This document shows positions 906 to 23,749 of a DNA stretch of 64,000 nt, one piece after another (the stretch's first letter is position 1; each line of letters opens with the position of its first letter). Below the pieces are notes generated by a model. The model was not told where the DNA came from, searched no databases, and saw only the letters and a list, made by a program, of their open reading frames with translations. The stretch spans positions 13,748 to 77,747 of the forward strand of contig JAXHNE010000005.1 in NCBI GenBank assembly GCA_034520885.1. The letters run 5' to 3'. Origin of the DNA: Candidatus Saccharimonadota bacterium. GTDB lineage: Bacteria > Patescibacteriota > Saccharimonadia > Saccharimonadales > JAXHNE01. Both the position numbers and the translations under genes were made by a program.

Positions 906-999
906 TGAGTGAAGTATAACGCACTTCGCGCTGGAATGCCAAATTACGCGCGGTGCAACGCTTGTGTTTGATCAAAGCTTTTACGCTATAGTTTTTGGT

Positions 1000-2364
1000 A
1001 TGGAAAAGAGGATAACTCCGGCGGATTTTGGCAGCGACACTCCCCCGCCGCGCATCATCGGCACGGAGTGCGAGTATTTACTGCAAGGTGGTGGCGGGTT
1101 GTGGTGGGATATCGTGTCTCCGAAAAATATTCATAACATCGGCCTTGGCTCCAAGTATGAGTTCACTAGCAACGGTTCGCGGACTTATATTGATCTTGGT
1201 AAGCTTATCGAATACGCGACACCGGAGTCGCTCGGCCCCTTGGACGCAACGGTTTCTGATTTTGCGGGAGTTGAAGTTATGAGAAGGCTTGTCATGACCT
1301 CGTGCGTGGATTACGAAGGATTGTACCGGCAAACGGGCTCGTTCGCGCAAGAGAAACACAACAGAAGGGACAAGAGTACCACCAGAGGGTTTCATGAAAA
1401 TTATCTGGCCCCGGCAGAGGCGACGGAAACGGAGTTTTTTCAAAAACTGCTTCCTTCGTTTTTGGCCAGCAAAGTATTTGATGGACAGGGTGCACTTACA
1501 CCGAAAGGCTACGCCTTAAAACAAAAGGTATGGGATTGCGGTGGAGACCCCGTAACGAATACGTATCATCGGCAAACGACCGCGGGAAATAAACCCATGG
1601 TTATGGTGCGTAACGACGAAACCGCACAAGGCGACTGGCGGCGTGTGGAATTACGGTGCGTTGACGGCGGACTTTCACCCGAGGCCAGAGTGGTAGCGTT
1701 GGGCGCGACCTCATTGGTTCTACGCTTATTCGAGCACCCTCGTTTCGTGAAGCAATCGGATTTGGAGGAATTCGCTTCCTTGGTATCTCCGGCTGACGCG
1801 GCCAAAATATTCGCTAAGGATTTGGATTTTAATTCCAGGATCGCATCCACCGATACGCAGAAAAACGTGACGGCAACCTCCATTCAGGAGTGCTTTTTGG
1901 ACGCCTGTGAGTCGATGTCGAAAGAGGTGGAATTACCAAAGGACGAGCAATACGCCCTAGATAAGTGGCGGGAAATTACCGATCGGATGAAACAGGCGAA
2001 AATCCGTGAAGGATATGCCGCCGGGCTGCGCGGCATTTGTGATAACGTGGCATTGTTCACGAAGTTCCAGAAACACTACCCTGAGGAGGAGTGGACTCCG
2101 AAGAACTTGGAGGGTCTGCGGGTCACCCAAAACTGGGACAAAATATTACCCGTTGGCAGTGCGGTGAAGTGGTGGAAGAACCACGGATCACCCTTGCTGA
2201 AATCTGAGGCTATCAAAGCCCGGCTATTCGAACCCCCGCAAACGCGAGCACAGCGGCGATCCGAAAAAATTAGTGATCCCGCCGTGGAGTATGTCAATTG
2301 GTCGGGTTTTGCCGAAAACGGCGACCGATCACATGAAAGCGGCTCTTTCGGCGACGTTTACTAG
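1000..2364 (+). CDS. Pup ligase/deamidase family protein (PafA/Dop homolog)
   Basis: The track ORF is 964..2364 (GTG start), with an internal ATG at 1000 (MEKRITP...). RIIGTECEY and NGSRTYIDLGKLIEYATPES match the N-terminal signatures of the Pup-ligase (carboxylate-amine ligase) family. Its stop codon directly abuts the stop codon of a pup gene. PafA versus Dop cannot be decided by eye. Confidence 0.85.
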   Translation: MEKRITPADFGSDTPPPRIIGTECEYLLQGGGGLWWDIVSPKNIHNIGLGSKYEFTSNGSRTYIDLGKLIEYATPESLGPLDATVSDFAGVEVMRRLVMTSCVDYEGLYRQTGSFAQEKHNRRDKSTTRGFHENYLAPAEATETEFFQKLLPSFLASKVFDGQGALTPKGYALKQKVWDCGGDPVTNTYHRQTTAGNKPMVMVRNDETAQGDWRRVELRCVDGGLSPEARVVALGATSLVLRLFEHPRFVKQSDLEEFASLVSPADAAKIFAKDLDFNSRIASTDTQKNVTATSIQECFLDACESMSKEVELPKDEQYALDKWREITDRMKQAKIREGYAAGLRGICDNVALFTKFQKHYPEEEWTPKNLEGLRVTQNWDKILPVGSAVKWWKNHGSPLLKSEAIKARLFEPPQTRAQRRSEKISDPAVEYVNWSGFAENGDRSHESGSFGDVY

Positions 2365-2583
2365 TTATTGTCCGCCTTTTTGCTGGAATTCTTTGGCGAA
2401 TTTCTCCGCGTTCTCCTCAAGTACATCGTCTATTCCGTCGAGCAACTCGTCAATATCACTCTCGTTATCTTCAAACGCCCCGTTAACCGCGGCCTCGCCG
2501 GCTTTTTCGGCGATCTCTTCATTGGTGATTTCACCTTCGGTTTCTGTCCGTTCAGGTTTGCGGGTTTTTACTTGTTCTCCCAT
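2365..2583 (-). CDS. pup: Prokaryotic ubiquitin-like protein Pup
   Basis: The ATG at 2583 is preceded by GGAG about 6 nt upstream. The 72-aa product is MGEQVKTRKPERTETEG...DELLDGIDDVLEENAEKFAKEFQQKGGQ. The acidic, disordered N-terminal half, the conserved helix LLDxIDxVLEENAExF and the terminal GGQ are the Pup hallmarks. The longer track ORF (to 2634) is rejected as an N-terminal over-extension. Confidence 0.9.
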   Translation of the reverse strand: MGEQVKTRKPERTETEGEITNEEIAEKAGEAAVNGAFEDNESDIDELLDGIDDVLEENAEKFAKEFQQKGGQ

Positions 2584-2653
2584 GTGTGTCTCCTTTTCTA
2601 CATTAATAGTAGCTTGCGTTTTCAAAGTTCCCAAGCGTGAGCGTTTTAATTTG

Positions 2654-3157
2654 TTATTCTTCGCGGGGTTTTAGGACGATGTGGCGGTCGCGGCCTTGGC
2701 CTTCGGACTCCGTCACGAGGCCTTCGGCGTCCGCCAGTTTGTGGATGGTGCGGCGGTCGGCGGCGTTCATGGGTTTTAGGTGCATGGGCTCACCGATGTC
2801 TTTGACCTCTTTGACCCACTCGGTCGCGGTGTTCTCCAGGCGCTCGGCGCGCTGTTTTTTGTACTCCGCGATGTCGACGTTCACGCGTGATACGGCGTAG
2901 CCTTGGTTGCGCAGGGCGTTACTGATGGTGAACTGCAACGCGCGCAAGGTGTCGCCGCGTTGGCCGATCAAAAAGCCGTTGAGATGCGTGCTGGGCACGT
3001 GCAGCTCGATGACCTCGTTGTCTTCGGTGGTGGCGTAGACGTCGGTGTTGAGGCCAAAGAACGACAGAAGATCCTCCAGGTACTTTTTGGCGTAGAGAAT
3101 CGCTTCGTCTACCGAGTCGTTGATTTCTTGTGGTTCTTTGCTATCACCCTCACTCAT
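2654..3157 (-). CDS. jag: Jag/KhpB RNA-binding protein (Jag-N, KH, R3H domains)
   Basis: C-terminal R3H-type motif MNAADRRTIHKLADAEGLVTESEGQGRDRHIVLKP. Conserved position immediately after yidC, with a 4-nt overlap. Confidence 0.85.
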   Translation of the reverse strand: MSEGDSKEPQEINDSVDEAILYAKKYLEDLLSFFGLNTDVYATTEDNEVIELHVPSTHLNGFLIGQRGDTLRALQFTISNALRNQGYAVSRVNVDIAEYKKQRAERLENTATEWVKEVKDIGEPMHLKPMNAADRRTIHKLADAEGLVTESEGQGRDRHIVLKPREE

Positions 3158-4092
3158 TTCTTCCTCCTTCGCTTGGCTTTTTTGGAAGATTTTTTGGCTT
3201 TGTTCGGCTTTTTCTTGGGTTTTTCCACGACCTCGCCTTCGATGACCTTTTTATCGGACGTTTTGGTTTTGTCCGCGGTGCTTAGAAGTTCTTGCTTGTC
3301 CTGGTTGAGGATGTGGGCTTGCTGTAGATAACCGATGAGCCCGCCGGTGAACCAGTACAGCGCCAGGGCGGACGGGAGCCCGGCGGTCACGATAAAGATC
3401 ATGAACGGAATAAAGTAGCGCATGGTGCGCCCGGTGGCGGCGGAAACTTCGGATTGATCGGCCTTTTTGCCTTCTTTGGCGTCGTTTAAGATTTGTTTGA
3501 GCGAGCGGGAGTTTTCGTCCGTCGGCATAAGCTGTTTGCTGCTATAAAACTGAGTGACGGCGCTTCCCAGCACTAACGCCATGGCCGGCCAGTAAGTGCC
3601 CCCGCCACCGACCGCGCTGCGGGTAAGATCAATTACCCCGAACAAGGTTTGGTCGAAACGGGCCATGTTGCCGGCAATTTGCTCCAGCCATGGCAGGTGG
3701 TTAATAAAGCTGTAACTAAAGGTAATCAGCGCGTCCGGGTCGTCTACGAGTCGCCTTAACCCGGAAAGTAATCCGATCAAAATTACCAGCTGCACGATAA
3801 GCACGCCGATGGTGCCGAACGGGCTGATTTCCTTTTCCTTGTACAAGGCCATGAGCATCATGGATTCTTGTTGGCGATTCCCCTTGGTTTGTTTTTTGAT
3901 GCGCTTGATTTCCGGCTGGAGTTCGCGCATGGCTTTAGCGTGGTGCAACTGCTTTTTCACCAGCGGCCACATCAAAAGGCGCACGATAATCGTGAAAATA
4001 ATCAACGCCAGGCCGAAGTTGTGCCCCGGCAAGATCGCGTAAATAAAGACCAATAAGTTAAATATTGGCTGGACTATGAAAAAATCGAACAT
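3154..4092 (-). CDS. yidC: Membrane protein insertase YidC (short Gram-positive type)
   Basis: Multi-TM protein with the YidC/Oxa1 core (MWPLVKKQLHHAKAMRELQPEIKRIKKQ...) and a lysine-rich C-terminal tail. rnpA-yidC-jag synteny. Confidence 0.9.
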   Translation of the reverse strand: MFDFFIVQPIFNLLVFIYAILPGHNFGLALIIFTIIVRLLMWPLVKKQLHHAKAMRELQPEIKRIKKQTKGNRQQESMMLMALYKEKEISPFGTIGVLIVQLVILIGLLSGLRRLVDDPDALITFSYSFINHLPWLEQIAGNMARFDQTLFGVIDLTRSAVGGGGTYWPAMALVLGSAVTQFYSSKQLMPTDENSRSLKQILNDAKEGKKADQSEVSAATGRTMRYFIPFMIFIVTAGLPSALALYWFTGGLIGYLQQAHILNQDKQELLSTADKTKTSDKKVIEGEVVEKPKKKPNKAKKSSKKAKRRRKK

Positions 4093-4146
4093 ATAGCTCC
4101 TATGATAGCACGCTGTTACTTCTCCGCGCAGCCGTAAATTTTACGA

Positions 4147-4491
4147 CTAAATAATACCCGCTTGGGAGAGCTGGGTGCGCAACATGGTGTCCAGCTCCTC
4201 GTGCGGCATGGTGGCCACGTTTTCGCTGTACACCATGATGGCAATGTCATACGGGTGTTTTACGCGGTCTTCGTAATGGCGGACGACCTCGAACACCCGG
4301 CGGCGTATACGATTACGTACCACTGCGGATTTATTGACTTTTTTGCTCACCACTACCGCCAGCCGATACGTCGTGCGTTTGGGGTTTTTGTGGTATTTGA
4401 TGGCGCACATCGGCCCGCGCACCACCCTGCCGTGTTTGTACACGAACTTGAGGCTGCCGTAGCCGTGAAATCGATGTGCTTTGGAGATCAT
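4147..4491 (-). CDS. rnpA: Ribonuclease P protein component
   Basis: A 114-aa basic protein with the RNase P protein RNR-type motif (KSAVVRNRIRRRVFEVVR). Located between rpmH and yidC. Confidence 0.9.
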   Translation of the reverse strand: MISKAHRFHGYGSLKFVYKHGRVVRGPMCAIKYHKNPKRTTYRLAVVVSKKVNKSAVVRNRIRRRVFEVVRHYEDRVKHPYDIAIMVYSENVATMPHEELDTMLRTQLSQAGII

Positions 4492-4580
4492 GTAACTAAG
4501 TATAAAGTCAAAAGTTTATAAAGTTACAAGTTTTCCTGTCACGAAGACAGTTTTTTACTTGCCACTTTACACTTTAAAAC
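4492..4580. repeat. Cargo-less heptamer-periodic imperfect inverted repeat filling the rpmH-rnpA spacer
   Basis: The left arm reads aagtata aagtcaa aagttta taaagtt acaagtt. The apex is a hairpin ctgtc-acgaa-gacag. The right arm reads acttgcc acttta cacttta aaactta, i.e. NNNNctt words complementary to the aagNNNN words. It spans exactly from the rnpA start to the rpmH stop. Confidence 0.6.
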
Positions 4581-4718
4581 TTAAGCCGAGAGCTTGGCGC
4601 GGCTTTTATTGCGGCGGCGCTTGAGCACCGCTTTGCCCGCTTTGGAGGACATGCGGCTCATAAAACCGTGGCGGCGCGCGCGGCGGCGGGTTTTGGGTTG
4701 AAACGTTCTTTTTGGCAT
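4581..4718 (-). CDS. rpmH: 50S ribosomal protein L34
   Basis: Found by hand (45 aa, below the track cutoff): [45 protein letters not shown]. This is the classic L34 sequence at the head of the rpmH-rnpA operon. Confidence 0.9.
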
Positions 4719-4847
4719 AGAGGGTAATTTTACCGGTAAACGCCCGGGTTGTCAACTTCGGTGGGTAGGGCGCGTTCGGGCGGTGCGTATATTTCGGGCG
4801 GTGAAGTACGTGGAATTCACCACATTTTTGCCCGAATTTCCGGGTAG

Positions 4848-4973
4848 TTTTCCACGGTTTTTTTACTATTTTCCACAGTTTTTCAGTTGATTTTTTGGCT
4901 TGTGTACAATTCTACCCCTGTTTTTGAAAATGTCGCGCGTTTTCCGGGTTGAACAAAAAATTTCTGTGGAAAA
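4848..4973. promoter_or_regulatory. DnaA-box cluster upstream of dnaA (candidate oriC / dnaA control region)
   Basis: Near-consensus boxes versus TTATCCACA: ttttccacg at 4848-4856, ttttccaca at 4869-4877, and tgtggaaaa (reverse complement) at 4965-4973. More degenerate boxes lie in the dnaA-dnaN spacer, e.g. tgtggagaa at 6606-6614 and ttttacaca at 6648-6656. Confidence 0.5.
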
Positions 4974-5044
4974 CTTTGGATTGTTTGGTATATTGTGGGT
5001 ACGAACGCCGCCGGGCGTACGACTTAAAGCAGAGGGAGCAAAAG

Positions 5045-6409
5045 GTGCAGGACAGTTTGTGGCAAGCGGTTTTGGGGGAGATCGAGCTATCGGTTTCGCG
5101 CGCCAGTTTCGTCACGTGGTTCAAGAACACTCGCCTGCTGCGCCGCAACGAAGAATTAATGGTCATTGGCGTTCCGAACGTCTTTATAAAGCAGCAATTG
5201 GAGCAAAAGTATAATTCTTTGGTGTTGGACATCTTAAAAAAGAACGGGGTCGACTCGCTCAAAGTGGAGTATAAGATAAACTCCTCCATTACCCCGAAAA
5301 AGAAAGAAAACGACGAGGAAGAAACGGTGGTGCGCCGCGCCGCCGGTACCGTGAAAAAAACCAAACCTTCGTCGGCACTTACCCACAACTACCGCCAAGG
5401 CATTAACGAACGCTACACTTTTGAAAACTTTATCGTGGGGTCGGCCAACGAGCTGGCTTACGCCGCTTGCCAGGCGGTGGCGCAAAATCCGGGCTCCAAA
5501 TACAATCCGTTGTTTTTGTACGGCGGCGTGGGGATCGGAAAAACCCACCTGATCCAGGCGGTCGGCAACGAAATCCTCAAAGCCCGGCCCTCCTCCCGGG
5601 TGGTGTATATTTCTACCGAGCAGTTCGTGCAGGAATTCCTGGACGCCATTCGCTACAAAAAGAATACCGATTTTGCCGGCCACTACCGCAGCGCGGACGT
5701 GTTGATCGTAGACGATATCCAGTTCATCGCCGGCAAGGAAAAAACCCAAGAAGAATTCTTCCACACCTTTAACGCCCTGCACCAGGCCAATAAACAGATA
5801 ATTATTAGCAGCGATAAGCCGCCGCGGGATATCCCGACACTGGAAGAGCGGCTGCAATCACGTTTTGCCTGGGGGATGTCGATTGACATGCAAAACCCCG
5901 ATTACGAAACGCGCTGCGCGATCGTGACCGCCAAAGCCCAATCCCACGACGCTACGCTAGCGCCGGACGTAGTGGAATTTTTGGCCAATTTAATACAGAC
6001 CAACATCCGTGAGCTGGAAGGCGCGCTTAATCAACTACTCGCCTTTTGTGAAATGCGCGGGCTGGAGCCGGAAATCGGGATCGCCAAATCCTTGCTGAGC
6101 GGAAAATCTTCCCGCCCCAAACACGTCAGCGCCAAACAAATCATTGAGCGGTGCGCCAAACACTTTAACGTGGAGGTAGAAGACGTGCTCGGCCCCAAGC
6201 GCGACAAAGACATCGTGGTGCCGCGGCAAATCGCTATGTACATGCTGCGTAGTGAATTGCATTTGAGTTTTCCCAAAATCGCCCGGGAGCTTGGCCGTAA
6301 AGACCACACCACCGCGATTCATTCGGTCGAAAAAATCGAAAAGGCGTCCGGTTTGGATCCGGATCTTAAAACGGCGCTTTCCGATATTAAGGAGCGGTTG
6401 TATGCGTAG
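5045..6409 (+). CDS. dnaA: Chromosomal replication initiator DnaA
   Basis: AAA+ Walker A LFLYGGVGIGKTHL, Walker B LIVDDIQF, and the C-terminal DNA-binding domain (PRQIAMYMLR...HTTAIHSV). The start is set at GTG 5045, with GGGAG 6 nt upstream, giving VQDSLWQAVLGEI.... The track ORF begins at 4949 with an implausible extension. Confidence 0.9.
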   Translation: MQDSLWQAVLGEIELSVSRASFVTWFKNTRLLRRNEELMVIGVPNVFIKQQLEQKYNSLVLDILKKNGVDSLKVEYKINSSITPKKKENDEEETVVRRAAGTVKKTKPSSALTHNYRQGINERYTFENFIVGSANELAYAACQAVAQNPGSKYNPLFLYGGVGIGKTHLIQAVGNEILKARPSSRVVYISTEQFVQEFLDAIRYKKNTDFAGHYRSADVLIVDDIQFIAGKEKTQEEFFHTFNALHQANKQIIISSDKPPRDIPTLEERLQSRFAWGMSIDMQNPDYETRCAIVTAKAQSHDATLAPDVVEFLANLIQTNIRELEGALNQLLAFCEMRGLEPEIGIAKSLLSGKSSRPKHVSAKQIIERCAKHFNVEVEDVLGPKRDKDIVVPRQIAMYMLRSELHLSFPKIARELGRKDHTTAIHSVEKIEKASGLDPDLKTALSDIKERLYA

Positions 6410-6597
6410 TTTTGGAAGGTGGAAGATGGTAGGTGGAAGATGGAATTCATATTTTAGTACTTGGTTTTTGGCAAGTGGTCGTGAAAGTCTACTACTGGGT
6501 ATGCGTAAGTTTGGAAGGTGGAAGATGGTAGGTGGAAGATGGCGGTTGGGTGCTAACACTCTTTACTCTTTGCTCTTTGCTCTTTGCTCACACCTGT
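6400..6597. repeat. 44-bp direct repeat including the last dnaA codons, plus heptamer tracts
   Basis: gtatgcgta-N2-tttggaaggtggaagatggtaggtggaagatgg occurs at 6400-6443 and 6499-6542 (2 mismatches). The first copy contains the dnaA codons TAT GCG TAG. The internal words are ggaaggt ggaagat ggtaggt ggaagat (period 7). They are followed at 6568-6597 by ctcttta ctctttg ctctttg ctctttg ctcac. Confidence 0.8.
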
Positions 6598-6944
6598 GGG
6601 TGGCGTGTGGAGAAATCGTTGGAAAAGCTGTTCGTAAGGTTCGTGGGTTTTACACAAATACACAGCGCGCACTAAAAACATCATTTATTCACGTACGTTT
6701 TACACGGGTCCGTGCACAGTTTTTGTACTCACTTTTTCACAGGAATTTTACGAATTCTTCCCTGTTATTTGCTTTTGTACACATCTCCCACTGCCCCTAT
6801 AACGACTACTACTTATATAAACTAGTTAGAAGAAAGGTTTAAAAATGAATCCTATAAAACCGGCTCCAGAAAAAGTAAGGACAGGAAGTTCAACACTACA
6901 TTACAACCCAGGCATAACAATAAAACCAAAGGAGGTTTAACGGA

Positions 6945-8039
6945 ATGAAGTTGCAAGTTACCCAGGAAAATTTCGCCAAGGCGCTCGCCAGTGTGGCACG
7001 AACAGCAAGCTCTAAAAGCACCCTGCCCATTCTTTCCAACGTACTACTAAAAACCGCCGGGAATCGTTTACGCGTAGCGGCTACTAATTTAGATATCGGC
7101 ATTACGCATAACATTGGTTCCAAGATTAGCCAAGAAGGATCAATTACCGTTCCCGCCCGGCTTACGCAGGATTTCGTGAGTAGTCTCCCGGGCGAAGTGA
7201 TCGATCTGGAGCTGGAAGAAAACAAGCTGCACATTTCCACCGAAAAATACCAATCCACGATTAATGGTGTCGGCGCCGAGGATTTCCCGGTAATGCCGGC
7301 GATCAGCAACGGGTCTTCAATAAAAATTGACGCTCTTACCCTGAAAGAAGCGCTTTCGCAGGTGATCGTGGCGGCCAGTAACGACGAAGCCCGCCCGGTG
7401 CTTACCGGAATATTTATGCACGCGCACGAAGGAAATCTGTATTTCGTGGCCACGGACAGTTACCGCCTAGCGGAACGAAAAGTGATGCCGCTCAAACAAG
7501 ACGTTCGTTTACTGGTGCCTTCCAACGCCATGCAAGACTTACTGCGGGTGATTCCCGACGACACCGAAACCGTGGAAATTTTTTACGATGACCAGCAAGT
7601 AAGTTTCGTGGCCGGTGACGTGGAACTGGTGACACGCATGATCGACGGCGAATACCCCAACTACCGCAACCTTATCCCCGCCAAGTTCGAACACACCGCG
7701 ACCGTGGAGCGTTCCGAGTTCATTAATATCACTAAAGTATCCAGTTTGTTCGCCCGGGAAAGTGCCGGGAGCGTGACGTTGACGACGGACGAAAAAGCCA
7801 AGGAGTTGAGTATTACCTCGGTTGCCTCGCAGGTGGGCGACAACACCGCGGCGGCCAGCGCCAAAATTTACGGCGAGGGCGCGGCGATCACCCTTAATTC
7901 CCGCTACCTACTGGACGCGTTGAACGTGTTCCATGGCGCGGAAACCACCCTGTCGTTTAACAGTAAATTGGACGCCGCCCAGCTTTCCGACCCCAAAAAC
8001 AAGGACTATACTCATATTGTAATGCCGCTGAAGTCCTAG
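6945..8039 (+). CDS. dnaN: DNA polymerase III beta sliding clamp
   Basis: 364 aa with GGAGG upstream. Typical DnaN sequence (MKLQVTQENFAKAL...; ...YTHIVMPLKS) and dnaA-dnaN-recF synteny. Confidence 0.95.
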   Translation: MKLQVTQENFAKALASVARTASSKSTLPILSNVLLKTAGNRLRVAATNLDIGITHNIGSKISQEGSITVPARLTQDFVSSLPGEVIDLELEENKLHISTEKYQSTINGVGAEDFPVMPAISNGSSIKIDALTLKEALSQVIVAASNDEARPVLTGIFMHAHEGNLYFVATDSYRLAERKVMPLKQDVRLLVPSNAMQDLLRVIPDDTETVEIFYDDQQVSFVAGDVELVTRMIDGEYPNYRNLIPAKFEHTATVERSEFINITKVSSLFARESAGSVTLTTDEKAKELSITSVASQVGDNTAAASAKIYGEGAAITLNSRYLLDALNVFHGAETTLSFNSKLDAAQLSDPKNKDYTHIVMPLKS

Positions 8040-8473
8040 ACTTCAGCAAGTTGAAAGTGCAAAGCTTAAAGACTAAAGTTTTAGTATGAAGATAAATTCG
8101 TTCGAAGATATATTGGCTTGGAAAAAAGCCAAAGACCTTACGGTGGCGGTGTATAAAACCACCAAAAGCAACAAAGACAATGGCTTCAACAGCCAACTAC
8201 AAAGAGCCGCGGTGTCGATAATGAATAATATTGCTGAGGGGTTTGAGAGACAAAGCAACAAAGAGTTTAAAAAGTTTTTATATATAGCGAAGGGTTCTTG
8301 TGGTGAAGTGAGGTCAATGTTGCGGCTCGGCCAAAGCTTAGAGACGATAAACGAAGATTCCGGCAAGATTTTAATTGACCAGTCAATCGAGATTTCCAAA
8401 CTATTGTCAGGATTAATAAAGAAACTATGAAAACTTTCTACTTTATAAACTTTAAGAACTTTAAACTAAACGC
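8040..8473 (+). mobile_element. Putative heptamer-armed cassette 1 carrying a four-helix-bundle gene
   Basis: The left arm (8040-8085) is built of aagNNNN heptamers: aagttga aagtgca aagctta aagacta aagtttt. The right arm (8431-8473) is built of the complementary NNNNctt words: aaacttt ctacttt ...aactt taagaactt. The cassette begins 1 nt after the dnaN stop and ends 1 nt before the recF ATG. Confidence 0.55.
8086..8430 (+). CDS. Four-helix-bundle protein (23S rRNA intervening-sequence protein / Avd-like family)
   Basis: 114 aa. Family motif QLQRAAVSIMNNIAEGFERQSNKEFKKFLYIAKGSCGEVRSML. Three further paralogs lie in this window. Confidence 0.85.
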   Translation: MKINSFEDILAWKKAKDLTVAVYKTTKSNKDNGFNSQLQRAAVSIMNNIAEGFERQSNKEFKKFLYIAKGSCGEVRSMLRLGQSLETINEDSGKILIDQSIEISKLLSGLIKKL

Positions 8474-11059: not shown

Positions 11060-12197
11060 TAATCGACCAGTGCCACGGTTCAGAAGGCAGGTTTTTTAAG
11101 CTGGTGTTGTCGCGTAAAAGTATAAAGCATGGATGGCTTCTACTGCTAATTGTGCTGCCATTACACGTAAAGTCAACAGCACTACCCCGTTCATGATTCG
11201 ATCTACCAGGGATTGCCGTAGCAATCCTACAGCTACCAGGAGGGGCGGAATACACGTCAGGACAACCGTTCTTGACGCGCAACTCTTCTTGGCGCTGTAC
11301 GGATCTCCAACCCCAACCACTCATGTTGAGTCCTTCGTTGTTCGCCAGGTTCACAACCCTCTCAACCTCTTCGGCGATACACGGGTGGACACGTATGCCG
11401 ACTGCCGAAACTGTTTGAGATTCCTCTACGGGTTCAGCCGGGCAGCCATTCTCATCTAACGCAACCGGGCCACCACCCGATTCTCCCGAACAAGTGGATA
11501 CCGAAACGTTTGAAACGCCTTCGACAGCATTAGTCCCGGATCCGAATTCCTGCAGCCAGGCGAGCGCTTGTGAGTGTCTAACCGGGCGGGTTCTTTCTAT
11601 GTGGGCAGGATTTTCATATTCCTCAAGAAAAATATCAGTCGCCTCAATATAGTCCTCCGTAGCCTTAATTGGTTCAAGAGTCGAAGACTTGTAGTCATCA
11701 CTTGTAAGTTCAGTCCACAAGTAGTCAAGTTGCACACCGAGGGGTTCGGTGGGTGGAACACCTCGTTCGGCATACAATTCCCGCAAACCTTGTTTGCGAG
11801 GAGGATGTGTCCACTGAACCAACCCGTAACCTGGCTGCCCTTTGCTGTTTTGATCCGGTGGTACCGTATCAGATCTGTGGGGCGGGTCGCTAAAAGCAAA
11901 CTCAACGACACGAGGATCCCAGGTGCCCGCTGACTCACTTTCGATATTACCCATAATACCCGCGACCTGAGCGGGGGTAAGCCCCTTTGATATAAGGAAA
12001 TTCCAAACCTTTTCCGGATTCTCCGAGCCGGTAAGGATGGTGGCTCCTTCACTGCAAGTACGCGAGTCCGGATCGTAGAAAGGAGTATATAGGTTTTCCC
12101 TGTCCGTGTCGGTGAGTGCGTAGGCCATCGAAGATATAAAAATTTGCCCCAAAAAAGCGAATAAAATAAATAAACAAAAAATACTGCGCCTATTCAT
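11049..12197 (-). CDS. Bifunctional cell-wall hydrolase (lysozyme-like domain + M15/VanY-type peptidase), functionally VirB1/CwlT-like
   Basis: The start is set at ATG 12197 (MNRRSIFCLFILFAFLGQIFISSMAYA, a signal peptide). It overlaps the upstream stop by 8 nt. GIMGNIESESAG is the phage-tail-lysozyme-type motif. The C-terminal PGRSNHERGSAVDF matches the SxHxxGxAxD zinc site of M15 peptidases. Confidence 0.8.
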   Translation of the reverse strand: MNRRSIFCLFILFAFLGQIFISSMAYALTDTDRENLYTPFYDPDSRTCSEGATILTGSENPEKVWNFLISKGLTPAQVAGIMGNIESESAGTWDPRVVEFAFSDPPHRSDTVPPDQNSKGQPGYGLVQWTHPPRKQGLRELYAERGVPPTEPLGVQLDYLWTELTSDDYKSSTLEPIKATEDYIEATDIFLEEYENPAHIERTRPVRHSQALAWLQEFGSGTNAVEGVSNVSVSTCSGESGGGPVALDENGCPAEPVEESQTVSAVGIRVHPCIAEEVERVVNLANNEGLNMSGWGWRSVQRQEELRVKNGCPDVYSAPPGSCRIATAIPGRSNHERGSAVDFTCNGSTISSRSHPCFILLRDNTSLKNLPSEPWHWSINGG

Positions 12198-14763
12198 TGG
12201 TAAAGTACGCTCCTGCTGCTTCGACCGCCGCTTCCTCCAGGAGGCAAGGGTTGGCAATCCTTTTTTCTTCCAATCCAGTGTAGGGGTTTTCATTTCCTTC
12301 GCCGGACTCTTCCCATCGTTCTTTGTACTCTTCGCAGCTTTCTTCGGTTAATTGATCGGGGTTTCGAGTAAAGGCGGGATCATTCTGGCTATAGCCGTAC
12401 CGTGTAATTCCAAAGGCGTTTATTGCCAGTTGCTGTTCGGCCAGTGAATCCGCCCCCACACTGCCGGTAAAAGCATTCCTTAAGTTCGCCTTGAAACCAT
12501 TCATTATTCCGAAGATCGCGCCAGTGCCCTGAGTTTGACCAATGGGTATAGAACCAACCAGGCCGCTGGCGAGTGATTGAGGGTGCTCAAGGCTTGCGAG
12601 GCGCGTAAGTAAGTCTTCTTTACGGAAGTTTTGACGTTGTTGCTCCAACTGTTCCTTCGTTATTTTAGCGTACTCTTCGTCGCTAATAACCGGGGCGCCC
12701 AGACCGTAAGGTTGGCCGGATTCGTCATATCCGCCCTCGGCGAATTCCGCCGATGTCACATCAGCGCCCGCTATGACTCCGTCCAACTTGACACGCGCCG
12801 GGCTGTCTTCTTGTACGGGGAGCGGAAAGACGTAACTAAATACCCATGTAAGAAAGGTGTCGAACAGGTTTTTAGCCCACTCTTCGAATGTATCGTAACC
12901 ACGAATATTGGATACCAAACCAAAGACGACACTTCCTATTGAGCTCAGGACGAAGTCTACAGCACCAACTATCCTTTCAAGGAAAAAGCGATAATCTGCT
13001 GGGCAAGGAGCGTTAATTTCTACAACAATTTCAACGCCTGGTGGACTTGTTACGCAGTCATCCAACGTATTTACTGCGCTGGCCACTCTATCGACCACCG
13101 GATTGTCCCGAAGCTTCTCTACCTCGAATCTATCCCCCGGGCCTCTAACAATCTTCTTTTCATCGCACACGTGATCACCTCTGTCTATCGGTTCTCCGTC
13201 CTGACAAGTGTATTCCTCGTCGGATTGTGCATGCACCGTTGAACTTCCGAGGAAGGCGACGTCATTGTTTTGTTGATTGGAATAGGCGCGCCACAATTTA
13301 CTTTTTTCAGCACCATCAAGGTCACTCAAAGCCGCTCCAAGTTCATTCAAGTCTACTTCGTGAGATTTTGTCTCGTCATTCAATGAACGAAAACCAGTAT
13401 AAATTTCTCTGTATTGTTCAGCAGCCAAAGCCGAATGGAACCGACTAAGTGCATCGTCATCTATAGCCCGGTCAAAATCATCAGCCAAAAGAGCCATGGA
13501 CGCAACAAAGTATAATTGTCCTGCCACAGGAATTTTAGTCGCTGCAAGCCGAGCCGAACTATCCTTCATGACCTTTGCCAACAATTTTTCGAGGACATAA
13601 CTGCTCACAGTTCCCCTGCTTCTACCAAGAGGTTTTCCATTCTCGTCTGTTCCACGAAAATGCTTTATAATGTCATTTCTGTCTTCCTCGGAAAGGTTGT
13701 TTCTGTCAAGGTCTCTTTCCCGCAAGTCGTTGGGGCCACAAGAGTTTGCGCGGCTTCCGATGTTCCTGTCGATAGCGCAGGTAAATATGAGGCCATACTT
13801 ACTAGAAAAAGGATATACAAACCTGCTTACGAATCTGTACTTATATCTCGTTCGTGCGCTTGCACTCCGGTCTTCCAGGTTATCTCTCGTGTCGCAAGCC
13901 CAAAAACACCAAAGCCTGACGTCGTGTTTTCGCTGGAGGTATTTACGGATTGAGCGGCGCTCCATGACCTGATAGATCTTTGTTTCTTGCCGTAAAAAAC
14001 GGTTCATTTCACGGCCGAAATCCCTCCTCCCCCTGTCGGTTACGATATTCCTGAATTTTCCGTCAACGTCCCTGCTTAAGTCGATTTCACTCCTGAGTTT
14101 GGTATCGTATAGGCGATGTCGAGTAATGCCGGTATCACTGTCTTGTTCCGTTCTGATTTCTATACCGTAGTTATCAAATAACTTTTGCTCGACTCGTGCG
14201 TCGCGCCATTGATTGAACAAGTTACCAGCGATACCTGCCCCCCTATAGGTATATCTGCAGTCGAGAGACACTGTCTGAGTACAGGTATTGAGCTGAGTCA
14301 TATAGGACACCATATATCTTTCCATGAGATGCCCCGCCCGGGCTTCAACGGCGTTGGCGGCAACAGCAAACGCTTTTTGGTTGATATTCTGCATAAAGTG
14401 TTCGAGCTTGAGTGCTGGGAGGGTCAATACCGATATGAGCACACCCCCGCCCACGAAAAGGCCGATAACTCCTCCTCCGGCTTTTCTGCGGCGGGTCCAG
14501 AACTTTTTCTTATTGGCACCACTTCCGTCATCTTTAAATAAGCTTTGCTCTTCTTCGCCTCCAGTGTCTTTACGAGGTTCAGCACCTTCTTCCTTTTCAG
14601 CGATTTCGTTAGGCGAGAGTGATCTTTGGCCGATATCCTCCGCCGCTCCGCTGTGGGCTTCGCGGTCCATGGCCTCTTCTTCATCGGGAGAAATACCGGT
14701 AATACCCCTTAATTCATCATTCGAGGTCCCCTTTTTTTGTCGTTGATCGTCGTAGACTGGCAT
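12190..14763 (-). CDS. Large T4SS-associated membrane protein, function unknown
   Basis: 857 aa. Acidic cytoplasmic N-terminus, a TM segment (GGGVIGLFVGGGVLISVLTLPAL) and a large exported region with a second hydrophobic patch. Lies between the virB4-like gene and the hydrolase. No family recognised. Confidence 0.6.
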   Translation of the reverse strand: MPVYDDQRQKKGTSNDELRGITGISPDEEEAMDREAHSGAAEDIGQRSLSPNEIAEKEEGAEPRKDTGGEEEQSLFKDDGSGANKKKFWTRRRKAGGGVIGLFVGGGVLISVLTLPALKLEHFMQNINQKAFAVAANAVEARAGHLMERYMVSYMTQLNTCTQTVSLDCRYTYRGAGIAGNLFNQWRDARVEQKLFDNYGIEIRTEQDSDTGITRHRLYDTKLRSEIDLSRDVDGKFRNIVTDRGRRDFGREMNRFLRQETKIYQVMERRSIRKYLQRKHDVRLWCFWACDTRDNLEDRSASARTRYKYRFVSRFVYPFSSKYGLIFTCAIDRNIGSRANSCGPNDLRERDLDRNNLSEEDRNDIIKHFRGTDENGKPLGRSRGTVSSYVLEKLLAKVMKDSSARLAATKIPVAGQLYFVASMALLADDFDRAIDDDALSRFHSALAAEQYREIYTGFRSLNDETKSHEVDLNELGAALSDLDGAEKSKLWRAYSNQQNNDVAFLGSSTVHAQSDEEYTCQDGEPIDRGDHVCDEKKIVRGPGDRFEVEKLRDNPVVDRVASAVNTLDDCVTSPPGVEIVVEINAPCPADYRFFLERIVGAVDFVLSSIGSVVFGLVSNIRGYDTFEEWAKNLFDTFLTWVFSYVFPLPVQEDSPARVKLDGVIAGADVTSAEFAEGGYDESGQPYGLGAPVISDEEYAKITKEQLEQQRQNFRKEDLLTRLASLEHPQSLASGLVGSIPIGQTQGTGAIFGIMNGFKANLRNAFTGSVGADSLAEQQLAINAFGITRYGYSQNDPAFTRNPDQLTEESCEEYKERWEESGEGNENPYTGLEEKRIANPCLLEEAAVEAAGAYFTNE

Positions 14764-15155
14764 TATTGAGTCCTGATTTTTGAGTTTTGTGTCTTGAGTG
14801 ATTTAAGAAGCCCGCTCAGTATCTTGGATATTTCATCGGTATTCTCCACCAGTCTATAATAGTCCTCAGTCTTGAAGTACTCAAGACTTCTTCCGAGTTC
14901 AAGCATAGATTCAACTTCGGCAGCAGAACCTTTGGCAATCAAGAGAAAGTTGGAAAAAGCCTTTGGGCTTCTTCTGGAGTGGCCTTCGGCTATATTGTTC
15001 ATAATCGAGACGGACGCTCTTTGTATCTGATCACGGAAGGAAAAGTCTTTGTTATTTTGCAGTAGTCCATATATTTCAACGCGTAAATGACGAGCTTTTT
15101 GCCAAGCCTTGATGTCTCGAAACGACTGCCCGGTGTTTTTGTTTACTTTGCTCAT
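14763..15155 (-). CDS. Four-helix-bundle protein (23S rRNA IVS protein / Avd-like family)
   Basis: 130 aa. Motif QIQRASVSIMNNIAEGHSRRSPKAFSNFLLIAKGSAAEVESML. Its stop shares 1 nt with the ATG of the downstream 857-aa gene (TAATG). Confidence 0.85.
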   Translation of the reverse strand: MSKVNKNTGQSFRDIKAWQKARHLRVEIYGLLQNNKDFSFRDQIQRASVSIMNNIAEGHSRRSPKAFSNFLLIAKGSAAEVESMLELGRSLEYFKTEDYYRLVENTDEISKILSGLLKSLKTQNSKIRTQ

Positions 15156-15196
15156 GGCTTTTGCTCAATACTCATCACTCACTACTCACAACTCAT
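14763..15196 (-). mobile_element. Putative heptamer-armed cassette 2 carrying a four-helix-bundle gene
   Basis: The right arm (15156-15196) reads gctcaat actcatc actcact actcaca actcatt (actcNNN). The left arm (14766-14810) reads ttgagtc ctgattt ttgagtt ttgtgtc ttgagtg (NNNgagt, the complement). The arm cores atcactca...aactca are shared. The left arm supplies the last codons of the gene (KSLKTQNSKIRTQ). Confidence 0.55.
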
Positions 15197-17122
15197 TTAT
15201 GAGCCGGGGCTTAGGCGGTTGTTCAGGTCTATTGTACCTTGTTCGCCGGATATTTCGCCCTGTTGTTCTATTTGGCTTACTTGTTCCGGATTGGTGGTGA
15301 TCAAATTGGTTTCCGTGGGGCTGGCGGTAACCTGAATATGTACGTGATTTTGCCCGGCAAAGAATAACCCTTGACCCACCGGGAATTGGCTGAGGCGTTT
15401 CTTTTCCTCGCTAGTGAGTTTGAATACATGAGAAAGTGTGTCCACGGCGGTGGAGGATTGTTTGAGCAGGATTTGCATGGAGGCGTTGGCCACGATTGCC
15501 CGCCCCATACGGCTACCCATAAAGTCTTCCACGTCTTGTGAAATGGTGGTGATACCCAGGTTGTATTTACGGGCCCGTTTGGCCAGGCTGAACATGAAAT
15601 TGGCGGAATCTTCGTACTTCATGAGCTGCCAGGCTTCGTCGACCACCAGCATACGACGCTTTTGGTCGGCTTTGGTTTTGTTCCAGATAAAGTTAAGTAC
15701 GATATACATGGCCACCGGGCGCAGTTCGTCTTCCAGGTCACGGATATTAAATACCACCATCGGGTTGTTGATGTCGATGTTAGACGGTTGCGAGAAGATA
15801 CCCGCGAACGTACCGGTGGTGTATTTGCGAAGCCGTTGCGCCAATTGCGGCCCATTTCCGCCCATATGTAACAGCGTGTCGTAAAGATCGTTAATGGTCG
15901 GCGGCGGCGAAGTGTGCGTGAGCGGATCGTTGGTGATTCCGGCTTTGGCATAGGTTTCGATCAGTGCGGCGTCCAGATCGGCCTCTTCAGCGGGGCTGAG
16001 CGCCGGAGCAATGCTGCCCTGGGCGCCTTCTTGTTGAGCCATTTGGGCCTGGGCGCCGCCCATCATCAGCCGTAAGAGCCCGTGCAAAGTAATCAGGTTG
16101 CTGCGCAGGGCGTTATCGGCCTCCTCTTCGTCGGCAACTTTCGGCAAATCAAAAGGGTTTATCCTGGTCGGTGAATTCAAACTTAAGCGAACGTAGGCTC
16201 CGCCGACCGCTTCGGCCATGCGCTGGTATTCGTTTTCCGGGTCGATAATGAACACCTCGGTGCCGAACATCATGCTACGCAAGGCTTCCAGCTTAACGGT
16301 AAAACTTTTACCGGCGCCGGACTTGGCAAACACCACGGAATTGCCGTTTTCCAAGGAAAAGCGATCAAAAATCACCAACCCGGAGTTGTGCATGTTAATG
16401 CCGTAAAGAATGCCGTTATCTTGCGTAAGATCGGCCGAAGTGAACGGGAAGCTGGTGCTTAAAGCGCCGGTGTTCAGGTTGCGGCGAATCTGCAGTTGAT
16501 CCGTAAATTGCGGCACGGTGCTGTTTAAGCCTTGCTCTTGCTGTGAAGTGGCCGGTTTGGAGTAAATTAATTGCTGGCCAAGCATGGATTCCACTTTTTG
16601 GGCGACGTATTCCAGCTCGTCTTCCGATCCCCCGTAAATCGTAAAGTACAGCCCGAAGCGGAAGAAGCGTTCTTCGCCCACCTGTAGTTTGTCGCGCATT
16701 TCCTCGGCGTCCTGGATGGCGGCCTGGGTGCCCGGATCGCGAACCCGACCCTTCTCGGCAGTGATTTGCATATCGGCCTCCAAGCGGGACACCTTTTTCT
16801 TGAGGTTATCCAGCACTACCTGGCTTTCGACTGGATAAATGTAAATTGAAAGATCAATCACTTCGTCCAGATTGACCATACTACTTAACCAACCGGTAAA
16901 AATTTGCCGCGGATACCCATACACGTAGTAGGTGCGGGCGTAGCGGGTGCCGATTTGAAAGTCCTTATTGTTAAAGACAATGGAGCTGGGGGCAATAAAG
17001 TCACGGAGCGCGCCAACACCCTTCTGGAAAGCGGCTTGGACTTCTTGCTCCTCACGGGCTTTTTGCTGCTGCGCCAGCGTCACCGGATCGGTCTGGTCGT
17101 TCTTTTTACCAAACAAACTCAC
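15197..17122 (-). CDS. virB4: VirB4/TrbE/ConE-family type IV secretion ATPase
   Basis: 641 aa. Walker A VFAKSGAGKSFT and Walker B MLVVDEAWQLM. The N-terminal domain is typical of VirB4 (GTRYARTYYVYGYPRQIFTGWL). GTG start. Confidence 0.9.
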   Translation of the reverse strand: MSLFGKKNDQTDPVTLAQQQKAREEQEVQAAFQKGVGALRDFIAPSSIVFNNKDFQIGTRYARTYYVYGYPRQIFTGWLSSMVNLDEVIDLSIYIYPVESQVVLDNLKKKVSRLEADMQITAEKGRVRDPGTQAAIQDAEEMRDKLQVGEERFFRFGLYFTIYGGSEDELEYVAQKVESMLGQQLIYSKPATSQQEQGLNSTVPQFTDQLQIRRNLNTGALSTSFPFTSADLTQDNGILYGINMHNSGLVIFDRFSLENGNSVVFAKSGAGKSFTVKLEALRSMMFGTEVFIIDPENEYQRMAEAVGGAYVRLSLNSPTRINPFDLPKVADEEEADNALRSNLITLHGLLRLMMGGAQAQMAQQEGAQGSIAPALSPAEEADLDAALIETYAKAGITNDPLTHTSPPPTINDLYDTLLHMGGNGPQLAQRLRKYTTGTFAGIFSQPSNIDINNPMVVFNIRDLEDELRPVAMYIVLNFIWNKTKADQKRRMLVVDEAWQLMKYEDSANFMFSLAKRARKYNLGITTISQDVEDFMGSRMGRAIVANASMQILLKQSSTAVDTLSHVFKLTSEEKKRLSQFPVGQGLFFAGQNHVHIQVTASPTETNLITTNPEQVSQIEQQGEISGEQGTIDLNNRLSPGS

Positions 17123-17144
17123 AAGACAACCCCCCGGGACTCTA

Positions 17145-17234
17145 AAGTCTGAAATCTGAAATGTGAAACCAGAAACAAATCTGAAATCTGAAATGTGAAA
17201 CCAGAAACAAATCTGAAATCTGAAATGTGAAACT
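17145..17234. repeat. 31-bp tandem repeat (about 2.8 copies) built of heptamers
   Basis: aaatctgaaatctgaaatgtgaaaccagaaac is repeated head-to-tail at 17146, 17177 and 17208 (the last copy is partial). It sits between the virB4 start and the stop of the four-helix-bundle gene. Confidence 0.9.
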
Positions 17235-17636
17235 TCATGATGAATTCCTCACAATCGCTCCGAGAATATTCATTAATTCGGTTGCTTCCTTCTGCAGTCT
17301 CGACTGTTCTTTACGATTTAATTCATTTGCTGTAATAAGTTCTAACCAGTAAATTGTTTCTCTCGCTTCTTTTTTTGCGATCTTAACCCGCATAATAAAA
17401 TCTTTCTTGCTTAAGGATTGATTTGCCTCCAAGTAGTTCGCACCAACGGAACCGGAAGAGCGAACGAGTTGCTTGCCGTCCTCTCTGTTACCGGCATTTT
17501 TAGGAAGTGCCCCCACGAATAAACGAACGTCTTTTGCGAACTTTTTAGTTCTATCTTCAAGATCAAAACGTTTCTGATTTCGTGCTTCGTGCTTGTTTCT
17601 GATTTCGTGCTTCGTGCTTCGTGCTTCAGTTTTCAT
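17235..17636 (-). CDS. Four-helix-bundle protein (23S rRNA IVS protein / Avd-like family), subtype B
   Basis: The start is set at ATG 17636, in an ATGA overlap with the upstream stop. Motifs RFDLEDRTKKFAKDV and QLVRSSGSVGANYLEANQSLSKKDFIMRVKIAKKEARET. The track ORF's 60-aa N-terminal extension overlaps the upstream gene and is rejected. Confidence 0.8.
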   Translation of the reverse strand: MKTEARSTKHEIRNKHEARNQKRFDLEDRTKKFAKDVRLFVGALPKNAGNREDGKQLVRSSGSVGANYLEANQSLSKKDFIMRVKIAKKEARETIYWLELITANELNRKEQSRLQKEATELMNILGAIVRNSS

Positions 17637-18547
17637 GAATATATATCCTTTTCCAGCTGTGGCTGGGCGGCTTGGCCTTCGCCCTTGGTGACAACTGGCG
17701 CTGTCATGGTGTTGAAGTCTTTCAGTTGCTGGCGGGTCGCGGTGTCCGGATTGTAGGTGTCGTAGTACAGTTCGATCAGCTCTTGCGTGTCCAGCGGGAT
17801 TCCCTGGATGCCGCATTGCTGCAACCCGTTTAACACCGCTTGTACGCGGTTACGCAGTTCGTCCTTGGCTTTGTTGAGCGTGGCTTCGTTGATGGTGACG
17901 TGCACGTCCTTGGGCTTGAAAATATGGGTCAGCCCCTGGAAGAATCCCCTACTACTTTCCACGGCCTGCTTTAGATCACCTTCCGGAAAGTACGGAATTA
18001 CCACGTAAAAATTCTTGTCCATAATGTTGGTTTGCAGGGAAAGGTTGTCGATGTAGGTAATGTAATCCTCCATTAACAGTGATAGCAGCATATTGTCATG
18101 CTCGCCACGGATTTTATCCAGCTTTTGGATATAGGGGGTCATGTCCACTTTGCGTGATCGCAGGAAAATTTGTATCGGAAAATATAAGGAGTTTAAAAAT
18201 CCCTGGTAACTGTATTCCACCGCATCCCGTTCTTCCGGGCTCATGAGATCGAAGTTGATGGAGCGGACGGCCACTACGGAGCGAAAGGAGCCGTCGTTCA
18301 TAATCACGATGCCATCGCGCACTTCGGCAATCTGTAAGGAGTTCTGGGTGCTATTAGGGTTGCCGGCCGGAGGTTGTTCCTTAGATTTTTGAGGTGTTGG
18401 TTGCTGGCCTTGAGATTGTTGGGGTGGCGGCTGTTGCCCCGGCGCTTGTTGTTGGCCGGGGTTTTGGGGCGCGTAGGCCTGCCCCGGCTGCGATTGAGCG
18501 GGAGGCTGCTGGGGATTGTTTTGTTGGCCGGGGTTTTGGGGATTCAT
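17633..18547 (-). CDS. T4SS-associated protein with a Gln/Pro-rich N-terminus, function unknown
   Basis: 304 aa. The first ~70 aa are low complexity (NPQNPGQQNNPQQPPAQ...). The segment DGSFRSVVAVRSINFDLMSPEERDAVEYSYQGFLNSLYFPIQIF is reminiscent of the N-terminal region of VirB4-type proteins, but this resemblance is weak and judged only by eye. Confidence 0.55.
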   Translation of the reverse strand: MNPQNPGQQNNPQQPPAQSQPGQAYAPQNPGQQQAPGQQPPPQQSQGQQPTPQKSKEQPPAGNPNSTQNSLQIAEVRDGIVIMNDGSFRSVVAVRSINFDLMSPEERDAVEYSYQGFLNSLYFPIQIFLRSRKVDMTPYIQKLDKIRGEHDNMLLSLLMEDYITYIDNLSLQTNIMDKNFYVVIPYFPEGDLKQAVESSRGFFQGLTHIFKPKDVHVTINEATLNKAKDELRNRVQAVLNGLQQCGIQGIPLDTQELIELYYDTYNPDTATRQQLKDFNTMTAPVVTKGEGQAAQPQLEKDIYS

Positions 18548-18802
18548 GTAAAACTAAACTCCACGTTTCAAATATCAATTTCCAGGGAATGGCTAAACAT
18601 TAACGTTTTCCCTGTCAATTTTACTTGTGATCGACCGTAATATCAAAACTATCCGATGACTTTCATTCATAAAAACCTCCGGATCGTAAGGAACTGATCG
18701 CACATTGGAGTTTGTGATTTGAGATTTAAGTTCTTCACGCCACCCTAAAAAGGTTATTCTTATATGCGGTTAATTATAGAGGAATTTTGTGCTTTGCACA
18801 AA

Positions 18803-19287
18803 ATAGCTGAAAGCTAAATGCTAAGAGCTCAAAGCTGCGCAATTTCCAATTTCCAATTTCTAATTTTCATTCAATTCTCAACCGCCATTTTTTAAACTAG
18901 TGGTAATTTTTTGGAAGATTAATACCAACTCATGAACTTCTTGCCATAATGATCGTAAATCAGCTTTTTTCGAAGGCGTTGCGGTACTAAGCATACGGAG
19001 CCAATGCTGTGTTTCTTGAGCCTCTTTTTTACAGATATGAATTTTATTACGGAAATCTTTTTTAGAGCTGGCCCCGTTCGCTTCCATATAGTTTGCTCCA
19101 ATGCTTGTCGAGGAACGAACCAACTGATTAATCAAAGGCTTGTTTATATTATTTTGTTTAATAACTTTACAGAGCTTAATTACATCTTCCCCAAACCTTG
19201 ATGTTCTTTCCTCTAAATCAAATTTATTGTCTTTTTGAGCCATTGAAGATTGATTGTAAATTGTAAAATTGAAAACTAAAAATTAAC
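18803..19287 (-). mobile_element. Putative heptamer-armed cassette 4 carrying a four-helix-bundle gene
   Basis: The left flank begins with agctgaa agctaaa tgctaag agctcaa agctgcg, then caatttc caatttc caatttc taatttt cattcaa. The right flank (19244-19287) reads ttgaaga ttgattg taaattg taaaatt gaaaact, whose reverse complement gives the caattt-type words. Confidence 0.55.
18878..19243 (-). CDS. Four-helix-bundle protein (23S rRNA IVS protein / Avd-like family), subtype B
   Basis: 121 aa. Motifs KFDLEERTSRFGEDV and QLVRSSTSIGANYMEANGASSKKDFRNKIHICKKEAQET. Confidence 0.85.
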   Translation of the reverse strand: MAQKDNKFDLEERTSRFGEDVIKLCKVIKQNNINKPLINQLVRSSTSIGANYMEANGASSKKDFRNKIHICKKEAQETQHWLRMLSTATPSKKADLRSLWQEVHELVLIFQKITTSLKNGG

Positions 19288-19345
19288 TTCTTGAATGATT
19301 CGATAGGCATACTGACAGCATAACGTATCAGCATTCAGCTGGTGG

Positions 19346-20464: not shown

Positions 20465-20475
20465 CTATTTAAACC

Positions 20476-22644: not shown

Positions 22645-22695
22645 TACAAGAATATTAACATAACGGGTATGCGTTCACACCAAATTTATAAAGTG

Positions 22696-23739: not shown

Positions 23740-23749
23740 ATTTCCAACC

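Follow-up and report, generated by a model that had tools for sequence, protein, structure and literature searches.

Pupylation is seen as an essentially actinobacterial process, shared with Nitrospira, which depends on two specialised paralogues, PafA and Dop, and on the Mpa-proteasome. Lehmann and colleagues are said to have described, in 2017, UBact systems in Gram-negative phyla and in some candidate phyla. In Corynebacterium and Bifidobacterium, an ARC-Dop-Pup-PafA set exists without the 20S core, and in C. glutamicum it serves ferritin disassembly (PMC8223512). Planctomycetes carry a single-copy PafA/Dop homologue, which was used as an outgroup by Hecht et al. 2020 (PMC7947786). Full-text searches of the literature returned no paper tying Pup or pupylation to Saccharibacteria, to the Candidate Phyla Radiation (CPR) or to Patescibacteria. 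Here, we analysed a 64-kb stretch of contig JAXHNE010000005.1 (the window), in which a pup gene faces a single gene of the Pup-ligase family PF03136. We slightly favour the view that these two genes form a self-contained pupylation module, whose single enzyme would both activate Pup-Gln and ligate it, independently of a proteasome.

The 72-residue product of the first gene is a Pup, as proposed in an earlier note made from the DNA alone. It exceeds the curated cut-offs of both Pfam PF05639 (E=6e-15, 56.4 bits, cut-off 27) and NCBIfam TIGR03687 (48.6 bits, cut-off 41.45). In a phmmer comparison with solved Pup chains (E ~1e-6), the last 28 residues were about 71% identical, and the likeness to the actinobacterial Pup C-terminus seen in the note was thereby borne out. 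The protein terminates in ...DELLDGIDDVLEENAEKFAKEFQQKGGQ, i.e. with a QKGGQ end. As the note had also described, a lone PafA/Dop-family gene abuts pup: no nucleotide separates its TAG stop codon (2362-2364) from the TAA of pup on the reverse strand (2365-2367). For this enzyme, the ATG at 1000 is the start favoured by homologues, an alternative GTG at 964 giving 466 residues. The protein is identical to NCBI MDZ7785848.1, 'PafA2 family protein [Candidatus Saccharibacteria bacterium]', a label that agrees with the CPR host envisaged in the note. The base composition (GC content) and codon usage of both genes are native. The exact 72-residue Pup is absent from the NCBI entries of the protein collection, although the neighbouring enzyme is present there; the window Pup may be unannotated in the deposited metagenome-assembled genome.

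Comparisons of sequence and predicted structure indicate that the enzyme is a member of a third, deep clade of PF03136, neither PafA nor Dop. The note had presented it as a PafA/Dop homologue. Membership in the family stands, but assignment to either enzyme was tried and rejected, since the protein is equidistant from both by hidden Markov model (HMM) score, fold search and tree. HMMs for Mpa, Dop, PrcB, PrcA and PafA were built from relatives in the fetched loci and searched on stop-to-stop open reading frames (ORFs); the references for them were verified with NCBIfam equivalog models (loci L022, Acidimicrobium, and L029, Nitrospiraceae). The window enzyme scored 79.7 bits on the NCBIfam Dop model TIGR03688 (equivalog cut-off 492.3) and 69.6 bits on the PafA model TIGR03686 (cut-off 551.3). 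By comparison, the verified references reached 509-537 bits (Dops) and 549-660 bits (PafAs) on their own model, and 364-406 bits on the other one. With the local HMMs, 45 clade members gave mean scores of 117 bits (PafA) and 110 bits (Dop), with a Dop-minus-PafA difference of -7.6 ± 14 bits; canonical members reached about 685 bits with the model of their own family and about 390 with that of the other. In the trimmed alignment, the window enzyme shares 22.3% of its residues with PafAs and 22.4% with Dops, against 35.4% between PafA and Dop.

Structural searches placed the enzyme in the same way. The AlphaFold2 model, computed from 32 clade sequences, was of high confidence (predicted local distance difference test, pLDDT, 92.8; predicted template modelling score, pTM, 0.94), and its closest folds were Dop (template modelling score 0.77) and PafA-Pup (0.76). 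Foldseek returned Dop at 6.5e-23 and PafA at 1.1e-19, and phmmer against the PDB gave 56.8 bits for Dop and 29.5 bits for PafA.

In a neighbour-joining tree, the Saccharibacteria enzymes formed one clade in 100/100 bootstraps. PafA and Dop were joined as one group in 25/100 bootstraps, the intermediate sequences wandering. Between the clade and PafA/Dop stood two divergent Saccharibacteria, Azambacteria, Sungbacteria, Phycisphaeraceae and one sequence labelled Woesearchaeota. Since the tree relies on simple distances and is unrooted, so that the root cannot be placed, we infer rather than observe that the clade branched before the PafA/Dop duplication. An exhaustive HMMER search of 1.84 billion cluster representatives (50% identity) retrieved 437 sequences with E<=1e-10, of which 103 reached E<=1e-30; with at least these 103 representatives, the clade is a large one and not an oddity.

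The active site was then compared with those of the known enzymes. The magnesium ligands of A. cellulolyticus Dop are Glu8, Glu10, Tyr92, Glu99, His155 and His241 (PMC8599861). Five of them are kept in the window enzyme as E23, E25, Y63, E71 and H132 and are essentially invariant across the clade, the first two lying in the GhExE motif (I20-G-T-E23-C-E25-Y). The sixth, corresponding to His241, is Glu217 here. Counted over 149 clade representatives at 50% identity, the catalytic position 65 is D in 136/149 and E in 9/149. Four residues that are invariant in PafA and Dop are replaced (R176K, R198K, H217E and I219R), and the new residues are themselves near-invariant in the clade (K176 in 143/149, K198 in 146/149, E217 in 134/149, R219 in 133/149). 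Such systematic and conserved replacements point to a constrained, remodelled enzyme of a third type.

Positions that discriminate PafA from Dop, including PafA V58, G59, A65 and F47, have been tabulated (Table 1, PMC7947786). The window enzyme is PafA-like in F55, D65-L-G and EYAT, and the clade consensus reads F..NG..Y.DVGHLEYATPE. Across the clade, the PafA-like traits are a phenylalanine at position 7, the pair V/L-G that follows the catalytic Asp, 'EYAT' and the lack of the Dop loop (~40 residues, W-D-Y...D.RG), which the alignment showed to be absent from all members. Likewise, the D-H-A-H-P-E-Y-S that follows the catalytic strand in Dop is not present, the window enzyme reading D-L-G-K-L-I-E-Y-A. 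The alpha-loop, the prime discriminator between PafA and Dop (PMC7947786), resembles neither in sequence: of the Dop sequence E-V-E-x-G-L-E-T-T only the T-T pair is kept, and the PafA motif WEG.SSATTRS is replaced by PVTNTYHRQTTAGN plus an insertion. In the clade as a whole this loop is longer and has its own sequence, with an 'RRT'-type motif. It was modelled as a coil, as in Dop (pLDDT 84-92), whereas the control model of a canonical PafA had a helix.

Related loci were viewed at ±10 kb around the enzyme gene, and the source genome as the 64-kb window. In nine independent Saccharibacteria loci (the window, L003, L005, L007, L008, L009, L013, L088 and L090), a pup gene, detected in the relatives with a local HMM on six-frame ORFs, converges on the enzyme gene with 0-11 nt between the stops. 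Each of these loci has one PF03136 gene, and neither Mpa nor PrcB was found within ±10 kb; the arrangement in which the note saw a possible minimal pupylation module thus recurs beyond this contig. In three lineages pup lies at the 3' end of rnpA-yidC-jag, and in another at that of dnaG-rpoD. The partner Pups end in GGQ (7/9), NGQ (1/9, L005) or GGE (1/9, L090); carboxylate chemistry therefore applies, and most of them need Gln processing by the sole enzyme present. Some Saccharibacteria Pups carry a tandem duplicate of the 'LLDxIDxxLE' helix, and unusual Pups are encoded in L005 (11439-11711, minus strand), L008 (3767-4111, minus), L009 (11426-11692, minus) and L090 (8619-8906, minus).

The note had seen no proteasome or Mpa gene in the 64 kb, and the HMM searches agreed: no homologue of Mpa/ARC, PrcB or PrcA was detected in window ORFs of at least 60 residues (best E 0.66), and neither the window nor the Saccharibacteria and other CPR loci examined had a match to Mpa, PrcB or PrcA (best E 0.4). 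Pfam scans of the large window ORFs identified type IV secretion system (T4SS) components, ComEC, ValRS and others, and no proteasome parts. As a positive contrast, 59 non-CPR loci gave Mpa and 12 gave PrcB/PrcA with the same approach. Dop, PafA and Mpa stood together, with Pup co-directional, in nearly all of the loci fetched from Actinobacteria, Nitrospira and other groups. When each GTDB species was represented by one genome, about 17 Saccharimonadales/Saccharibacteria assemblies had a single match each, and a few other CPR assemblies were also matched; further loci came from contig look-ups.

Compared with the actinobacterial Mpa/ARC-Dop-Pup-PrcB-PrcA-PafA system, the Saccharibacteria pair has a tag of the same family, which ends in GGQ and whose C-terminal region for enzyme binding is nearly the same, and an enzyme with the same carboxylate-amine-ligase fold, GhExE motif, magnesium ligands and catalytic Asp. 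It differs in having one enzyme instead of two, orthologous to neither, in the lack of linked Mpa/20S genes and in its CPR host. Moreover, pup converges on the enzyme gene, whereas actinobacterial pup follows dop in the same direction. With Corynebacterium and Bifidobacterium the likeness would be pupylation without a 20S core and a non-degradative role of the tag; however, these genera keep ARC, Dop and PafA together (as seen in L058 and L083), while the Saccharibacteria module is without all three.

The Planctomycete/UBact type resembles the window in having one family member outside the PafA/Dop duplication and a small tag gene adjacent to it. In the Phycisphaeraceae locus L079 (9582-12352), a single PF03136 homologue lies in an open frame of 838 residues (stop to stop). 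Just 5' of it, on the same strand, an ORF of 85 residues ends in QQGE; it is UBact/Pup-like and was undetected by the Pup HMM. In contrast to the Saccharibacteria enzymes, the Planctomycete protein retains the canonical motifs and can be aligned in part with the Dop loop, and its tag gene is co-directional; the Saccharibacteria clade forms its own group with 100% bootstrap and has a distinct active-site signature.

How the two-gene module could work may be outlined as follows. Pup would be made constitutively, and the single PF03136 enzyme would bind its conserved C-terminal helices. One active site would then perform both the job of Dop (deamidation/activation of Pup-Gln) and that of PafA (ligation), transferring the activated Pup to lysine side chains on its targets, and would probably reverse the conjugation too. 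Given one enzyme and a mostly Gln-ended Pup, the simplest model is indeed that the same enzyme activates or deamidates and ligates. Since Mpa/ARC and 20S genes were not found beside the module, the tag most likely has a proteasome-free role; it would either mark proteins for regulation or offer a different unfoldase a handle. Covalent attachment of Pup to target lysines, the bifunctionality of the enzyme, its targets and its independence from the proteasome are what we infer from these gene comparisons.

Published work offers a precedent for such an enzyme. An engineered Dop/PafA chimera pupylates directly with ATP (adenosine triphosphate) and Pup-Gln and keeps some depupylase activity, and the case has been made that PafA and Dop descend from a promiscuous ligase (PMC7947786). 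The chimera, Dop2PafA-alpha(Ac), shares with the window enzyme the working mode proposed here, one enzyme ligating with ATP and Pup-Gln; it was, however, made in the laboratory and combines a Dop loop with the PafA alpha-helix, whereas the window enzyme lacks the Dop loop and its alpha-loop is longer and unique. Tentatively, and with less confidence than we place in the module itself, we propose that the window enzyme might be a natural one-enzyme catalyst that converts Pup-Gln to a lysine isopeptide and back, with a remodelled site (K176, K198, E217, R219). It might thus be a living counterpart of the postulated promiscuous ancestor, used for proteasome-free tagging in ultra-small episymbionts. 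If so, pupylation would extend to the CPR, the question of an ancestral bifunctional PafA/Dop would become directly testable with two small genes, and a clean case for a Pup role without proteasome or Mpa would be available.

Several observations weigh against this proposal. The 'KNN' motif is lost in the clade and 'INTRDEPHA' is degenerate, its Arg being present in about one quarter of the members, and the R193A variant of PafA is inactive. As residues invariant in PafA/Dop are changed, the chemistry may differ from that of both known enzymes. The conformation of the alpha-loop comes from a structure prediction, and the helix in the control model had a pLDDT below 50. The genomic view comprises 64 kb of the genome and ±10 kb per relative, and a second paralogue, Mpa or 20S genes may lie elsewhere. 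Finally, Pup is missing within ±10 kb from the majority of the distinct clade loci inspected, mostly those of deeper branches.

These 'orphan' enzymes are found in L010-L012, L014-L017, L019, L020, L041 and L086. No Pup- or UBact-like small acidic ORF ending in Q or E was detected within ±10 kb of them; either their Pup is encoded elsewhere or they act on another substrate. L086, from a 253-kb contig with clade member P0018, also has a gene of the WhiB family (20143-20577), which is typical of Actinobacteria. More canonical-looking PF03136 genes are present in L074 (Sungbacteria, two adjacent genes, 4078-7838), L025 (Azambacteria) and L026 (labelled Woesearchaeota), and no Pup, Mpa or 20S gene lies within reach of them.

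Among the alternatives, the one that survives best, although it is unlikely, is ordinary pupylation with scattered parts, in which a second PF03136 paralogue, and perhaps Mpa/ARC and 20S genes, would lie elsewhere and the window enzyme would do one job only. Only ~6% of the ~1-Mb genome is in view, which leaves room for such parts, and Sungbacteria L074 has two adjacent paralogues. In addition, the divergent Saccharibacteria enzymes of L016 and L020 are nearer the canonical ones and keep TRDEPHA, so the phylum holds more than one lineage. However, the ~19 CPR assemblies in the GTDB scan had one match each, and more than 20 Saccharibacteria loci all had one enzyme, with Mpa/PrcB not found within ±10 kb. 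In non-CPR loci, by contrast, Dop, PafA and Mpa are almost always tightly linked. Nor does an enzyme equidistant from PafA and Dop, and orthologue of neither, fit one half of an ordinary pair.

We consider it quite unlikely that the enzyme has a single activity. It would then be either a mere deamidase/depupylase or a mere ligase, and in the latter case a different amidase would deamidate Pup-Gln, or Pup-Gln would never be conjugated. The NCBIfam, PDB phmmer and Foldseek scores are slightly better for Dop and the alpha-loop was modelled as a loop, but a depupylase would have no substrate if a ligase were lacking. A role as ligase agrees with the missing Dop loop, the PafA-like surroundings of the catalytic Asp and the one Pup ending in GGE; a Gln-incompetent ligase, however, clashes with the 8/9 partner Pups that end in Gln. 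Across the clade, moreover, the local HMM scores show no consistent preference for PafA or Dop.

Actinobacteria use pupylation and are the hosts on which Saccharibacteria live. Pup or the enzyme might therefore be delivered to the actinobacterial host, e.g. by the T4SS of the window, and disturb the host pupylome, a scenario that we regard as very unlikely. The C-terminus of Pup, ~71% identical to actinobacterial Pup, would suit it, as would the T4SS cluster and the VirD4-like gene in the same window. Against this, different lineages have pup as the last gene of a core housekeeping row (rnpA-yidC-jag or dnaG-rpoD), the enzyme is 22% identical to actinobacterial enzymes and not nested among them, and its base composition is native. 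No secretion signal was seen, though none was looked for, and the surplus of Actinomyces among the weak matches is explained by the search pattern RIIGTETEY. Horizontal transfer from the host was rejected on similar grounds: the weak matches in Actinomyces, Schaalia and Pauljensenia are an effect of the search pattern, identities are no higher than to Nitrospira, the clade is not nested in Actinobacteria and composition is native. A decaying remnant or a recent horizontal acquisition without function is hardly credible: several PafA/Dop-invariant residues are indeed replaced, but the replacements are near-invariant across the 149 representatives, and the ORFs are intact, the fold confident, the synteny conserved and the GC content and codon usage native.

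For the two-gene module that we favour, two routes of pup expression may be considered, from the end of the housekeeping row or from its own weak promoter (Table 1). On the same strand, 70 nt separate the jag stop from the pup ATG, and the rpmH-rnpA-yidC-jag row reported in the note was confirmed, with jag, yidC and rnpA recognised by Pfam and rpmH by its translation; dnaA and dnaN, on the plus strand, diverge from this row. The note had suggested co-transcription of pup with these genes. A strong promoter-like site (4755-4727) could drive rpmH-rnpA-yidC-jag(-pup), and no terminator-like site was found between jag and pup, which makes read-through plausible. Co-transcription is, however, only one option, because the 70-nt gap contains a weak promoter-like site; it falls below the threshold of the promoter scan, but its 'GCTACTAT' is common to the window and the relative L003, so that pup may possess its own promoter. 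Around the pup-enzyme junction, terminator and promoter scans gave chance-level signals only, and Rfam had no match in the region. As the convergent stops abut and leave no room for terminators, the 3' ends of both transcripts must overlap.

Table 1. Coordinates and strands of the features discussed in the window.
Feature	Position	Strand	Basis or remark
PF03136 (Pup-ligase family) enzyme, 454 aa	1000-2364	+	Pfam PF03136, E=1.3e-37, 130 bits, cut-off 25
pup, 72 aa, ATG start	2365-2583	-	PF05639, TIGR03687, alignment to solved Pup chains
Shine-Dalgarno AAGGAG, 6 nt 5' of pup ATG	2590-2595	-	read from sequence
Weak sigma-70-like site TTGGGA-17-TACTAT in jag-pup gap	2606-2634	-	8/12 matches; candidate pup promoter only
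jag/khpB (KH + R3H), directly 5' of pup	2654-3157	-	PF01424, PF13083
yidC	3154-4092	-	PF02096
rnpA	4147-4491	-	PF00825
rpmH (L34), 45 aa	4581-4718	-	translation MPKRTFQPK..., typical of L34
Promoter-like site TTGACA-17-TAAAAT, 5' of rpmH	4727-4755	-	promoter scan, 11/12 matches
PF05635 paralogue	8086-8427	+	
PF05635 paralogue	14763-15152	-	
PF05635 paralogue	18878-19240	-	
T4SS cluster	12190-27000		
TraG/VirB4-like ATPase	15197-17119	-	in T4SS cluster
PrgI	19346-20461	-	in T4SS cluster
T4SS pilin	23699-24601	+	in T4SS cluster
VirD4-like coupling protein	52362-55055	-	apart from T4SS cluster
TIR-domain protein	35918-36709	-	
Nucleoside 2-deoxyribosyltransferase-like gene	37149-37730	-	
GIY-YIG nuclease	37933-38205	-	

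The remaining content of the window, with three PF05635 genes, ComEC, the T4SS cluster and a short YidC, agrees with a Saccharibacteria host. The PF05635 family ('23S rRNA intervening sequence protein') forms a four-helix bundle; its three paralogues are scattered among replication and T4SS genes, and a member of the same family follows dnaN in the relative L003. Several large ORFs of the T4SS region have no Pfam match. Finally, the TIR-domain gene stands beside the deoxyribosyltransferase-like and GIY-YIG nuclease genes in a group (35918-38442) flanked by tRNA-Arg and tRNA-Ser genes, which may be a small defence or mobile islet.

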